A stretch of 52,615 bases of DNA, from sequence record NC_079181.1. One strand, given 5' to 3'. The stretch is from Escherichia phage vB_EcoP_Bp7. Position 1 is the stretch's first letter; every line of letters starts with the position of its first letter. The notes below the pieces were generated by a model. It had not been told where the DNA came from. It worked only from the letters and a program-made list of their open reading frames with translations, and ran no database searches. Of the stretch, positions 12,814 to 15,612 are shown piece after piece. A program made the translations under genes and the position numbers.

Positions 12814-13488
12814 ATGTCTTATCATGATGATGACAAAGAGATTGCACTATCAACGTGTAAGCAATGGCTCAATGATAATGATGCCGTCTATCTTGCCAAG
12901 GAAGATGTTATCATTATGTGGGTCCATTTTAATCCAGAATCGAAGCGCGGTGAGTGGCAACGCTACAAGATGAAAGAGGCTTGTCGCATAATTAAAGCCA
13001 CACGCGCTGGCTTCTCTGCTATGAAGTATATTAAGCCAGAGATGCTTATGCTTGCTGCACAGGAAGAAGAACGTGCGTATAAGCAAGCTGTTAAATCTCG
13101 TTCAACTGTTCCTCCAGAGTTCTTTAATTTGGAGCGCGCTGGACACTTCAACAATTTAGAAATGTTGACACTGTGCCTGTTGCAAGAATTAGTTGGAAGA
13201 GGACAAAACATTGAAGCTGTTTGTCTTGGAGAACTCATGAAAGAGTTGTTCTCGGCAAAGGGCTTTGCTGTGCCAAACCGAACTTTACGCTGGAAATTGT
13301 TGCGAGCAGTCGCGCAAGAAGCTGGTGTAGTTGTTCGTGACAGAACAAACCGACTCACTGTAACTGGAGTTGGGCGTTTTGTAGCAATCCAGATTGAGGG
13401 TTATGACGAATCAATCATCACTGAACTCACTGTCGCTGAGACAAAGGATTTAGTAAATAAAACACTAGAACGATTCAATAGATATTGA
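12814..13488 (+). CDS. hypothetical protein (224 aa)
   Basis: ATG at 12814 in frame with the 12757 track ORF, directly after the upstream stop. Confidence 0.55.
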   Translation: MSYHDDDKEIALSTCKQWLNDNDAVYLAKEDVIIMWVHFNPESKRGEWQRYKMKEACRIIKATRAGFSAMKYIKPEMLMLAAQEEERAYKQAVKSRSTVPPEFFNLERAGHFNNLEMLTLCLLQELVGRGQNIEAVCLGELMKELFSAKGFAVPNRTLRWKLLRAVAQEAGVVVRDRTNRLTVTGVGRFVAIQIEGYDESIITELTVAETKDLVNKTLERFNRY

Positions 13489-13517
13489 GTCGTTTGACGA
13501 ATCAGAGCAGTTCTGAA

Positions 13518-13536
13518 ACATTAGTTGGATGTGGAA
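13518..13536 (+). promoter_or_regulatory. phage promoter-like motif P6 (acattagttggatgtggaa)
   Basis: Conserved motif about 75 bp upstream of the 13612 gene. Confidence 0.55.
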
Positions 13537-13611
13537 AGAGAAAGGCTCTTTAATTTTATCTAAGTCACGTCACCGTGGCGTGCAAAACTATTCAATATAA
13601 GGTATATACAA

Positions 13612-13950
13612 ATGGCTAAGATTGTAACCGTAACTCAGTACGAAGCTAACGATGGTTCCCTGTTCCTGACCGAAGCAGAGTGTAATGCACATGACTTCAA
13701 ACTGGAAAACGGTGCTAAAATTGAGAAAGCTGCCGAAGCGTACCTGAACACCGTTGGCGCTATCGACCGTTCTCGCTCCATGCAGAAGAACACCATCGAG
13801 CAGTTCCTGGCATTCTACCTGCCGTGGGTTGAAGCTGGTGAGCCGGAAGTTGAGCGTACTAAGTTCGATACTCCGAAAGAAGCTAAAGTTGCTGACGCAA
13901 GTGTTGCCGAAGCTGCCGAAGCTGCTGTTGAAGAAGCTCCGGTATTCTAA
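13612..13950 (+). CDS. hypothetical protein with acidic C-terminal tail ending in Phe (112 aa)
   Basis: Strong SD (TAAGGT); E. coli-like high-expression codons; C-terminus AEAAEAAVEEAPVF. Confidence 0.65.
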   Translation: MAKIVTVTQYEANDGSLFLTEAECNAHDFKLENGAKIEKAAEAYLNTVGAIDRSRSMQKNTIEQFLAFYLPWVEAGEPEVERTKFDTPKEAKVADASVAEAAEAAVEEAPVF

Positions 13951-14319
13951 GTTGCCGATGGCAGACTTGAGAGACTAAGCTAAATCGATCTGGCATGCAC
14001 TGGAAGTTTTCCGGTGCTGCCTTGAACCCATTCCAGAGTGAGTGGGCTTCAATTTGTACATAATCCAAACACCATTGCATGAGCCTTCGACGGGAGGCAA
14101 TGTTGGGAAATTTGTTGTGTACAAATTGAAGTAGTTTTCTGAGTCTTACGACGGGCCTAAACTGCCTGAAGTTATTGCGACTGTTTTATTCATTTAAAAT
14201 AAATGCAAATGATTCTGAAATGCGAGTTGCGGCTTAATTAAATTTAAGTCTTCTCCGTGGTCTTCCAATCCCACGTAACCAAATTTGGCGCATTGTGGCT
14301 CCGAGATGTGATTAATAAA

Positions 14320-14527
14320 TCGGAGCAATAATTAATTTGTATTCTGCGATGCAATGCAGGCTTAAGTCCCTCAGTGCGCGTGGGGATGTGACAGAGTACA
14401 AACTTAATTATTAATTTGTATTCTGGTGTTGTTCGCCAAGATTGGTGCACTCATGATTGGTAGTGTTGGAGAGCGCGGAGCCTAAAATATTATCTGGCAT
14501 CTCCTACCAGAGTACAAACTTAATTAT
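14320..14527. repeat. cluster of direct and inverted repeats in a non-coding island
   Basis: cagagtacaaacttaatta occurs twice (around 14390 and 14505); aattaatttgtattctg occurs twice; together they form an imperfect palindrome at 14393-14426. Confidence 0.55.
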
Positions 14528-14968
14528 GCAGTTGGATATTTCTAGAGGACGGACGAGCACACTGGAATGTCTTCAATTGGTTTAGTGTGAGAAGCTATGC
14601 CAATATGAAACGTAACTCCTTGGGGAAGTGCTCCTCTGGATTTCCCTCCACACAGGAATCTCAAGCCTGTGGCAGCGACTTCGAAGCTGCACTGCGTAAC
14701 CTAAATTCACCCTAAAGTGAGTTGCCCTGAGTATGGAAATAAACTGCTCATAACCGATGGTATCTACAAAGGTAGATTAAATCAGGTTGCCTGTTGGTAC
14801 TTGGGTTCAACACCTGCTTGCACTCGCAAAGTAGTGCCTCGTACCTGAGATGAAGTGAGTCGGGACCATCAATCCCACGTTATGTCAAAACGCAGTAGGC
14901 GGCTCACAGATTCTACAAGCCTCGCAGTTCGGGAAAACCTGCGTTATCAAAACCCCCTCTTATTCTTT

Positions 14969-15061
14969 GGACGAGTAGCTCAGAAGGTCTGCTCCAGAGC
15001 TTAGTCAGGTAGAGCAATCTGTTAGGCAGATGTGTCGTTGGTTCGAATCCAACCTCGTCCA
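14969..15061 (+). tRNA. atypical 93-nt tRNA-like gene (isotype unresolved, possibly Leu)
   Basis: Perfect 7-bp acceptor stem (GGACGAG / CTCGTCC) and canonical T-arm (GTTGG-TTCGAAT-CCAAC), but about 20 extra nt in the D-arm region; candidate anticodons UAG or CAG depending on the fold. Confidence 0.45.
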
Positions 15062-15093
15062 CCCACTTTAATAACCGCAATACTGGAGTCCTT

Positions 15094-15234
15094 ATGGATT
15101 TTGATGCACTTGATAATTTAGACTTCGGTGCTGCCGAAGAAGCAATTGAAGAACTTAAGAAGAAGCAGGACGAAGAAGCAATCGTTCCTGGTGAGGGCGA
15201 TAACGACTGCTCAAGTGGTGCGTGCGCCATCTAA
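15094..15234 (+). CDS. small acidic protein (46 aa)
   Basis: Hand-translated MDFDALDNLDFGAAEEAIEEL...; GGAG 6 nt upstream. Below the ORF track cutoff. Confidence 0.35.
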   Translation: MDFDALDNLDFGAAEEAIEELKKKQDEEAIVPGEGDNDCSSGACAI

Positions 15235-15242
15235 GGTGATTT

Positions 15243-15479
15243 ATGCAACAGCTTAAATCAATAGTTCTTGGCGTCCTGACTGCATTTGGTATTCTTATTG
15301 CAGTGTTCCTCAAAGGCAAAAGCTCAGGCAAAGCCGAGGAGCGTCAGGAAGCCACAGAGAAGCAACTAGATTCATTAAAAGAATCTATCGAGATTAAATC
15401 GCATGTTCAGAAAGAAGTGTCTAGCAGTTCTGATAGCAATGTCGATAGTGAGTTGCTCTCAAAGTGGGTTCGTAAGTGA
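15243..15479 (+). CDS. i-spanin-like membrane protein (78 aa)
   Basis: N-terminal TM segment IVLGVLTAFGILIAVFL followed by a charged helical region; AGGTGA SD. Confidence 0.45.
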   Translation: MQQLKSIVLGVLTAFGILIAVFLKGKSSGKAEERQEATEKQLDSLKESIEIKSHVQKEVSSSSDSNVDSELLSKWVRK

Positions 15480-15612
15480 TTATTGCTTAATTGCACAACC
15501 AATCTATTTGGATGTTGCAGAAGTGAAAATACTATCACGCGAAACCAAAACACAGATTTTAGTCCACAATGAAACGTGGGCACAAAAGTGTTCGAAACTT
15601 ACCCGACAGTGA
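15403..15612 (+). CDS. o-spanin-like lipoprotein (69 aa), overlapping the previous gene in another frame
   Basis: Lipoprotein signal MFRKKCLAVLIAMSIVSC with lipobox IVSC; overlapped two-frame layout as in Rz/Rz1 pairs. Confidence 0.45.
   Translation: MFRKKCLAVLIAMSIVSCSQSGFVSDYCLIAQPIYLDVAEVKILSRETKTQILVHNETWAQKCSKLTRQ

Follow-up and report, generated by a model that had tools for sequence, protein, structure and literature searches.

Transfer-messenger RNA (tmRNA) is universal in bacteria, and the tagging it carries out can both help and restrict phages. Surveys of phage-borne tmRNAs list the Bxz1 group of mycobacteriophages, Bacillus phage G and phage DS6A, which has the tRNA-like domain only, and they list no enterobacterial phage; the DS6A half-molecule inhibits host tmRNA (PMC4131195, PMC11915505). 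We describe here a non-coding island of about 1 kb (positions 13951–14968) in 52,615 nt of DNA from Escherichia phage vB_EcoP_Bp7 (NC_079181.1), a stretch referred to below as the window. A first-pass annotation made from the letters alone had flagged the island for its repeats, but missed the central point, which is that a tmRNA-like gene with a tag reading frame lies in its middle. By its sequence and predicted fold, this core is a member of a large unannotated phage RNA family that reproduces the message half of tmRNA, an identity that we regard as solid, and we are highly confident that the island forms a genuine, functional array of RNAs whose core derives from tmRNA.

The phage RNA shares with bacterial tmRNA (ssrA; RF00023, clan CL00001) a frame-setting box upstream of a GCA resume codon, a 10-codon tag that starts with AND and ends with a hydrophobic residue followed by Ala/Val-Ala, and a stop codon placed in helix 5 ahead of H-type pseudoknots, and a model of the phage family aligns to ssrA in register. 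It differs in having no acceptor stem, T-arm, CCA end, G3:U70 pair or helix 2, in its length (~190 nt versus 363 nt), in having two downstream pseudoknots rather than three and no clear PK1, in scoring under every Rfam cut-off, and in being a phage-encoded mobile cassette. The coding pieces of the two-piece tmRNAs of alpha- and beta-proteobacteria and cyanobacteria (RF01849, RF01850, RF04321) are likewise separate, message-only RNAs; the surroundings of the phage resume codon are nearly identical to the beta-proteobacterial consensus cAUAAAuGCcAAcGAUGA, and the next pseudoknot aligns as well. Unlike those coding pieces, however, the phage RNA does not start with a 5′ acceptor strand and has no acceptor piece just upstream. 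As with the known phage tmRNAs, it is a phage-borne tmRNA derivative, and like the DS6A RNA it is a half-molecule; whereas those RNAs are complete or consist of the tRNA-like domain only, the present RNA is the opposite half. Neither Rfam 15 nor the literature searched, tag peptides included, yielded an account of it, and an earlier one in subscription journals is possible; in these sources a tmRNA derivative without a tRNA-like domain has not previously been described. The prophage small RNA svsR is unrelated.

The tmRNA-like core and its tag reading frame

A sensitive BLAST search of the island returned two sub-segments that match unannotated DNA in unrelated phages. Positions 14060–14139 match Felix O1-like phages, and positions 14177–14327 match other chasevirus genera, Ackermannviridae, N4-like phages and Klebsiella siphoviruses. 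The core RNA is built, in order, from a 5′ motif, a lineage-specific 5′ insert with a second CUUACGACGGG box, the tag frame, helix 5 and two pseudoknots, placed in the window as follows:

14131–14330, + strand: tmRNA-like RNA, ~190–200 nt, without a tRNA-like domain
14131–14139, + strand: 5′ motif GUAGUUUUC (family consensus RGUUUUCGU)
14199–14237, + strand: AUAAAU box and tag frame, GCA AAU GAU UCU GAA AUG CGA GUU GCG GCU UAA (ANDSEMRVAA and stop)
14231–14250, + strand: helix-5-like hairpin GGCUUAA-UUAAAU-UUAAGUC with the stop codon inside; the outer pairs covary
14256–14288, + strand: pseudoknot A, with stem CGUGG/CCACG and a CCAA loop that pairs with a downstream UUGG
14289–14326, + strand: pseudoknot B, with stem 1 CGCAU/AUGUG containing an invariant G-U, stem 2 GCUCCGA/UCGGAGC and the conserved loop UGAUUAAUAA

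The tag frame itself (14205–14237) has neither a start codon nor a Shine-Dalgarno sequence; it opens with the Ala resume codon GCA and closes with Ala-Ala and a stop. The corresponding tags in the lineages, with that of E. coli tmRNA for comparison, read:

Window (chasevirus): ANDSEMRVAA
Ackermannviridae (PC3): ANDSEVLMAA
N4-like (PGN829.1): ANDDVILMAA
Felix O1-like (UAB_Phi87): ANDNVFLAVA
P1: ANDDLMMVAA
E. coli tmRNA: ANDENYALAA

Of the 125 loci that carry the search pattern, ~120 have a 10-codon frame. Entropy at the three codon positions is 0.61, 0.51 and 1.07, and synonymous codon differences number 1712 in the tag frame versus 122 and 315 in the other two frames. All four wobble bases are in use in the final Ala codon. 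Among 50 distinct sequences, 45 have Leu as residue 7, and residues 1, 2 and 10 do not vary. Judged from this pattern of substitution, the tag is conserved at the peptide level and looks translated. Additionally, all members, including those found by BLAST, have U at −5 and A at −4 of the resume codon, which correspond to U85 and A86 of E. coli tmRNA, the nucleotides that set its frame (PMC2481249).

The covariation analysis across phages that the first-pass annotation had suggested was run on 34 members with <93% mutual identity (alignment A1), and it supports a structured RNA. The proposed helices are paired in 95.4% of cells, compared with 31–46% when the partners are slid, and compensatory changes are seen in 13 of the 20 pairs, a result reached by none of 500 shuffles. 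The stem of pseudoknot A is 99% paired, and its crossing helix is 100% paired with compensatory changes at all four pairs. Stem 2 of pseudoknot B differs in sequence and length from lineage to lineage, with complementarity always kept. A covariance model (R1) built from 30 members, none of them a chasevirus, finds a single copy in the window (14185–14334, 84.9 bits, E ~1e-15), scores P1 at 62.7 bits, and aligns E. coli ssrA at 19 bits with the resume codons and the stops of the two in register.

At gathering score, Rfam 15 gives no match in the whole window, GOLLD and ROOL included. Permissive scans return weak matches to beta_tmRNA, tmRNA_permuted, alpha_tmRNA and tmRNA over the tag and first-pseudoknot part in every lineage tested. 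Scores against the tmRNA models stay below cut-off both in the window (20.8 bits vs 47; 14.7 vs 50) and in the best relative (30.7 bits vs 47), and in the clearest case the beta_tmRNA model aligns the tag and following pseudoknot of an N4-like phage with E = 5.5e-5. The matches at E up to 10 outside the tmRNA families and tRNA are STnc410 (15.6 bits vs 50) and implausible ones to a plant microRNA and a plastid untranslated region.

The module is widespread. With a 185-nt siphovirus-type copy (locus L010) as the BLAST query, matches were found in 771 of 50,697 GenBank phage records, including Vi01, CBA120 and P1/P7, almost none of which annotates anything under the match, and in 137 of 5,426 complete E. 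coli genomes, where the match is unannotated too. A pattern drawn from the two most conserved boxes occurs in at least 120 IMG/VR viral contigs. The carriers are chaseviruses, Felix O1-like phages, Vi01/CBA120, N4-like phages, siphoviruses, lambdoid prophages and P1; among species-representative bacterial genomes, true copies occur in Enterobacterales only, all of which have an identical ssrA tag template. Felix-like phages carry the module within a tRNA array, on the same strand as the tRNAs, while in E. coli 55989 it sits between the Q antiterminator and holin genes, and elsewhere it has its own promoter and heads tRNA operons with no link to lysis genes. The module moves between phages as a self-contained unit. 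Its identification also puts a name to a conserved block that goes without annotation in the genomes of hundreds of therapeutic and model phages, P1 included.

In P1 (L141, 68,880–69,080), a diverged copy of the module occupies the C1-repressed leader of the ban operon, in the stretch from the 'dicF-like region' to tRNA-Asn/tRNA-Thr.

The island as an array of stem-bounded cassettes

Megablast places the region in the Chaseviridae, genus Carltongylesvirus, with 98% identity to vB_EcoM_Bp10 and 97% to phiEcoM-GJ1 (GJ1). The equivalent stretch is empty or carries tiny gene-caller open reading frames (ORFs) in most GenBank records of relatives, and in Erwinia phage Y2 it is occupied by small annotated ORFs. 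Because a kilobase-sized gap also follows the homologue of the upstream 112-aa ORF in Erwinia phage Fifi44 (Loessnervirus) and in an Aeromonas phage, the gap is a conserved family feature, and the RNA array accounts for this 'empty' kilobase conserved in position across the Chaseviridae. The absence of any credible ORF, remarked on in the first-pass annotation, is borne out, the longest being 68 aa. A frameshift-corrected ORF, which that annotation had named as a competing explanation, does not provide one: a 1-nt indel shifts the frame of the 80-aa GTG ORF of GJ1 in the window, where the DNA is otherwise almost the same. We conclude that the GJ1 ORF is false and that the island holds no conserved ORF. 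The features that lead into the island, together with its long hairpin units, are:

13516–13535, + strand: phage-RNA-polymerase promoter of the GJ1 'promoter 7' type, AAACATTAGTTGGATGTGGA, an exact match to promoters annotated in GJ1
13612–13950, + strand: 112-aa ORF of unknown function, phrog_17419, in chaseviruses always immediately upstream of the island
13982–13991, + strand: conserved box AAAUCGAUCU, kept in Erwinia and Aeromonas chaseviruses
13992–14021, + strand: strong hairpin GGCAUGCACUGGAA-GUUU-UCCGGUGCUGCC, fold z −6.4
14027–14046, + strand: hairpin CCCAUUC-CAGAGU-GAGUGGG; the stem is kept in Aeromonas phage phiA050 and in Fifi44, with loops changed or expanded
14046–14132, + strand: unit A, an 87-nt hairpin with a 19-bp stem, a 49-nt insert and the tip GCCU-UCGACGGG-AGGC
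14329–14410, + strand: unit B, with the long stem UAAUUAAUUUGUAUUCUG / CAGAGUACAAACUUAAUUA and a 45-nt insert
14408–14526, + strand: unit C, with the stem sequences of unit B and a different insert of ~82 nt

The promoter at 13516 is predicted to drive the 112-aa ORF and, by read-through, the island. No sigma-70-like promoter was found in 13400–15300 and no internal promoter in the island, and the following phage promoter is kilobases distant. The hairpin at 13992–14021 has the look of a leaky terminator, and its SA91KD homologue carries a terminator annotation. All significantly structured segments fold better on the + strand than on the − strand, with energies of −40.2 versus −28.3 kcal/mol for unit A and −51.8 versus −37.3 kcal/mol for the module at 14131–14332 (z −2.9 versus −0.4), and z values of −2.9 versus −0.6 for 14528–14715. 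The island is not spacer DNA; we read it as a co-transcribed + strand array of structured-RNA cassettes.

The repeats noted in the first-pass annotation are all present where it placed them, and the inverted and direct repeats are strands of these stems. Its 11-bp inverted repeat extends to 17-nt arms (14047–14063 / 14115–14131) that are 94% complementary and, with G-U pairs counted, form the 19-bp stem of unit A. The 19-nt direct repeat occurs at 14392–14410 and 14508–14526, and its reverse partner, TAATTAATTTGTATTCTG, at 14329–14346, with a second copy that ends at 14425; direct repeat and partner are the 3′ and 5′ strands of the consecutive hairpins B and C. What was described as an imperfect palindrome (14393–14426) exists as sequence, although it is merely the junction of these two stem-bounded units. 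The longest exact direct repeat measures 20 nt, where none of 200 dinucleotide shuffles goes beyond 13 nt. Taken alone, the exact 14-nt inverted repeat is of marginal significance, since 9 of the 200 shuffles reach it, but it belongs to the 19-bp stem. The paired boxes, cttcgacggg (box 1, 14085–14094) and cttacgacggg (box 2, 14145–14155), are likewise found.

The units come and go among relatives. GJ1 and Ecp_YSF lack exactly one unit, unit C (14412–14507 of the window), with breakpoints inside the 19-nt direct repeat, and a TH53-like contig has unrelated DNA in place of unit A and of 14414–14715. On this evidence the island is a mosaic of cassettes bounded by stems. Conservation, whose absence would have counted against the first-pass annotation, is found in related and unrelated phages alike, in the sense that the element is kept; the repeat sequences themselves vary between relatives while their pairing is maintained. 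Unit A, which adjoins the 5′ end of the tmRNA-like RNA, shares ~80% identity with the hairpin that Felix O1-like phages carry at this point, and its probable role is in processing or insulation. The long stems of units A–C measure 18–19 bp and are candidate RNase III processing hairpins.

Small stable RNAs within phage tRNA clusters are familiar from T4 (species 1 and 2 RNAs), and T7 transcripts carry RNase III hairpins. The island resembles these in having non-tRNA RNAs that would be co-transcribed and processed with tRNAs, and long hairpins between units. Unlike those RNAs, the present one has a tag reading frame, and the likeness is one of layout, with no sequence relation found, although no search was aimed at one.

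The 5′ end, the search for a partner and the possible mechanism

The 5′ end of the core RNA, GUAGUUUUCU at 14131–14140, comes straight after the 19-bp stem of unit A. In alignment A1, GUUUU is invariant, and RGUUUUCGU nearly so, in both types of 5′ domain. In 50 distinct cases a perfect stem of 9–20 bp, of unrelated sequence from case to case, ends 0–7 nt ahead of GUUUUC; where there is no stem, a tRNA, terminator or promoter ends at this same distance, and the hairpin is absent where a promoter adjoins. The placement of the stem fits a signal for processing to a fixed, unpaired 5′ end. Siphovirus contigs L010 and L039 have a sigma-70 promoter adjoining the module, and the transcript would start a few bases before GAUAGUUUUCG, with nothing upstream.

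This 5′ motif is complementary to the tag template of E. coli ssrA, ACGAAAACUAC (nt 97–107). The consensus RGUUUUCGU complements ACGAAAACU(A) (nt 97–106), perfectly over 9–10 nt, with the purine at the first position able to pair with U either way, and the best predicted duplex between ssrA and the first 22 nt falls within nt 84–110 for 30 of 34 members. Anti-ssrA oligonucleotides used in cell-free translation and ribosome display target the tag template. Such oligonucleotides are synthetic DNA against the whole tag, whereas the predicted seed is 9–10 nt long and belongs to a natural structured RNA, at its 5′ end. Antisense oligonucleotides to tmRNA block rescue in vitro (PMC3384345). Because the complementarity was matched post hoc and all known hosts share one template, we treat the pairing of the seed with ssrA as a lead and not as a result. 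A separate 10-nt identity, of box 1 (UUCGACGGGA, 14085–14094) with ssrA nt 16–25 in part of the D-loop analogue, was given no weight, as ~0.7 chance matches are expected; this box is not found in the close relatives GJ1 and Ecp_YSF.

Searches for a tRNA-like domain or a partner RNA gave no candidate. ARAGORN, which also detects permuted tmRNAs, calls no gene in the window and no tmRNA in the window or in ~40 related loci, and no complement to the 5′ end of the module was found in the window. T-arms followed by acceptor strands were sought over 700 nt to each side, and full acceptor/T-arm pairs with G3:U70 over 1.5 kb to each side; all that came up were ordinary neighbouring tRNAs, a D-armless tRNA-Arg-like gene and chance matches. 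Neither a tRNA-like domain nor a CCA end nor G3:U70 was found for the phage RNA, and the Rfam alignments span the message part only. Two candidate acceptor structures were rejected. Unit A, read as a permuted acceptor arm, has no T-arm, and its CACCA / GUUGGGA pairing contains mismatches and is not kept in the homologue of the Felix-like phages; pseudoknot B with a 3′ A(N)CCA, read as an acceptor mimic of the plant-virus kind, has CCA in a minority of members, and its invariant G-U is too distant from the 3′ end. Furthermore, no flanking element or partner RNA common to all module-bearing phage families was found. Because of this, we consider the module self-contained, in which case its working partner must be the host's.

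We think it rather probable that the phage RNA engages trans-translation. Our overall explanation, which we put forward tentatively, is an RNA-cassette array whose core, a tmRNA message half, docks on host tmRNA to rewrite or block the tag. The RNA would be excised from the phage-polymerase transcript by cleavage at the flanking long hairpins, leaving a single-stranded 5′ end, (A)GUUUUCG, which could anneal to codons 3–6 of the host tag template. The phage RNA would then borrow the alanine-charged tRNA-like domain of the host molecule together with SmpB, with the host template masked and the phage template (ANDSEMRVAA here) presented in its place. Proteins from stalled ribosomes in infected cells would receive the phage-specified tag, or no host tag. 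Docking and retagging in this specific form is possible, though we hold it with considerable doubt, and we are similarly doubtful of the fuller picture of a mobile half-tmRNA whose antisense seed reprograms rescue, such that the ANDENYALAA degron is replaced by a phage tag or tagging is silenced.

Several points weigh against this explanation. A template annealed in trans has no precedent, and without a tRNA-like domain, CCA end or G3:U70 there is no known route to translation of the tag. Many variants would leave the host resume codon uncovered, and a 10-bp duplex is one that a ribosome could simply unwind. The energy of the duplex is not consistently better than that of shuffled 5′ ends (z −3.4 to +0.9), and a 9–10-mer match between RNAs of this size, noticed after the fact, is not very rare. 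With one ssrA tag template in all known hosts, there is no covariation between seed and target to read, and the same 5′ stretch also resembles ssrA nt 7–24 in sense orientation, a likeness seen for box 2 (14145–14155) and its flank. Finally, the search pattern itself partly imposes the constancy of AUAAAU and the first three codons, although members found by BLAST share both.

Two alternatives keep the connection to tmRNA. The phage RNA could be the coding piece of a split, two-piece tmRNA, with the acceptor piece a separate, unrecognised phage RNA such as a tRNA-like cassette or the adjoining aberrant tRNA-like gene. Two-piece tmRNAs exist, Rfam gives its best matches with the permuted and beta-proteobacterial models, a phage with the tRNA-like domain only is known in DS6A (PMC4131195), and tRNA-like neighbours are at hand in the lambda-type GGUAAGAGCAUU...GGGUUCGAAUCCC...AGUGCUCUUUCC units, a mini element of phiA050 and the gene at 14969–15065. 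However, the carrier families have no flanking element in common, no candidate shows G3:U70 or complementarity to the module ends, ARAGORN finds no permuted tmRNA, and nothing lies upstream of the module where a promoter adjoins, and we judge a split tmRNA unlikely. Alternatively, the RNA could be purely an antagonist or decoy that blocks the tag template by antisense pairing, or titrates tmRNA-binding proteins such as S1 or SmpB, its own tag never being translated. Its 5′ complementarity to ssrA and its lack of a tRNA-like domain would suit this role, as would the inhibition of tmRNA by antisense oligonucleotides (PMC3384345) and the finding that tmRNA tagging can limit phage propagation (PMC6207430). 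A codon-periodic, synonymous-rich frame of 10 codons with strict length and stop is hard to explain without translation, and we consider pure antagonism an unlikely reading as well.

The remaining alternatives place the function elsewhere. If the island were mainly a processing or regulatory leader tuning expression of the tRNA-like gene and the spanins, the tmRNA-like part would be a passenger relic; long imperfect hairpins do stand between transcription units as in T7-like transcripts, the hairpin at 13992–14021 is terminator-like, and Rz/Rz1 genes lie downstream here, as a holin gene does in lambdoid prophages. A relic would not be expected to retain covarying pseudoknots and peptide-level constraint over at least six phage families and 771 genomes, and the module also stands under its own promoter at the head of tRNA operons, apart from lysis genes, which leaves the leader quite improbable. 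A DNA-level element, whether replication origin, protein-binding iteron cluster or recombination hotspot, would find some backing in repeats that run in both orientations and in cassette gain and loss at those repeats. Against it, the island shows no AT-rich dip, its GC content (0.42–0.47) matching the window average (0.442), its cumulative skew runs monotonically without a turn, the stems depend on G-U pairs and fold far better on the + strand, and pairing is kept among relatives where the repeat sequences differ. We regard such an element as highly improbable. The first-pass annotation had offered structured RNA or a protein-binding regulatory hub: strand-specific folding, covariation and conservation uphold the former, whereas the latter finds no support, the repeats being RNA stem strands that bound insertable cassettes, with no AT-rich or skew signature.

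A widespread phage RNA that carries the tag template alone, its tag constrained as a peptide, implies either that a foreign template is fed into ribosome rescue or that there is an undiscovered partner or mechanism, and either outcome would alter the understanding of trans-translation and of phage–host conflict. If docking on host tmRNA is correct, the RNA would be without precedent both as a natural trans-acting template for trans-translation and as a phage RNA shown to target tmRNA. As a tractable model phage, P1 would be a good test system for the idea.

The rest of the island and neighbouring elements

Beyond unit C, the island continues to its downstream boundary with three further features:

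14528–14842, + strand: further folded non-coding sequence with CACAGG...CCUGUG and AUCUAC-AAAG-GUAGAU hairpins, variable among close relatives; it holds the 80-aa ORF of GJ1
14843–14960, + strand: conserved block with hairpin GGGA-CCAUCAA-UCCC, the invariant CAGAUUCUACAAGCCUCGCAGUU and hairpin CGCAG...CUGCG
14969–15065, + strand: aberrant tRNA-like gene bounding the island; Rfam tRNA 27 bits vs a cut-off of 29, core only; missed by ARAGORN

The two hairpins of the first segment, both listed in the first-pass annotation, lie at 14651–14671 and 14762–14777. The block at 14843–14960 is common to phiA050 and a distant IMG/VR chasevirus contig (L044) in alignment. Its 4-bp/7-nt hairpin covaries (GAGG/CCUC in phiA050) and its invariant stretch is 23 nt long; the block could represent another small RNA, or else serve as a promoter or in processing. 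At the other end of the island, the box AAAUCGAUCU comes right after the stop codon of the 112-aa ORF in Escherichia, Erwinia (L129 ~1676–1686) and Aeromonas (L130 ~1612–1621) chaseviruses.

The tRNA-like gene at 14969–15065 has a normal acceptor stem, T-arm and D-arm core. However, 22 inserted nt separate its 5′ acceptor strand from the D-arm, its anticodon loop is odd, and CCCA stands in place of CCA. Its GJ1 copy is annotated as a tRNA-Arg that 'may contain an intron', and ARAGORN calls that copy tRNA-Leu(cag). Just downstream of the island are overlapping spanin genes of the Rz/Rz1 type (15243–15612). In lambdoid prophages the module lies just upstream of the lysis cassette, and module and lysis genes may travel together.

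Tandem cassettes were observed in lambdoid prophages, in 46–48 kb siphoviruses and in P1 (L126 5880–6020 and 6150–6230; L010, L019, L012, L141). They share the same ~17-bp stem, CACAACAGGUAAGAGCAUU ... AGUGCUCUUUCCGUUGUG, around variable inserts, some of which hold a perfect T-arm, and a second cassette type, GUUGUGGUGAAUGCGCAGGCUGAUGCGC..., comes next. Phage lambda has one unit of the CACAACAGGUAAGAGCAUU ... AGUGCUCUUUCCGUUGUG type just downstream of tR′. The tandem cassettes have the appearance of a class, so far undescribed, of RNA cassettes or tRNA-like 'punctuation'. In some Felix O1-like phages (L024 1894–1972), a D-armless version with a long variable arm replaces the tRNA-Arg(UCU) after the module; it scores 31.7 bits against Rfam tRNA and is missed by ARAGORN. 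The mini tRNA-like element of phiA050 (L130 2689–2745) consists of an acceptor stem, one hairpin, a T-arm and CCA, with no anticodon arm, and matches the mascRNA model weakly at 24.6 bits.

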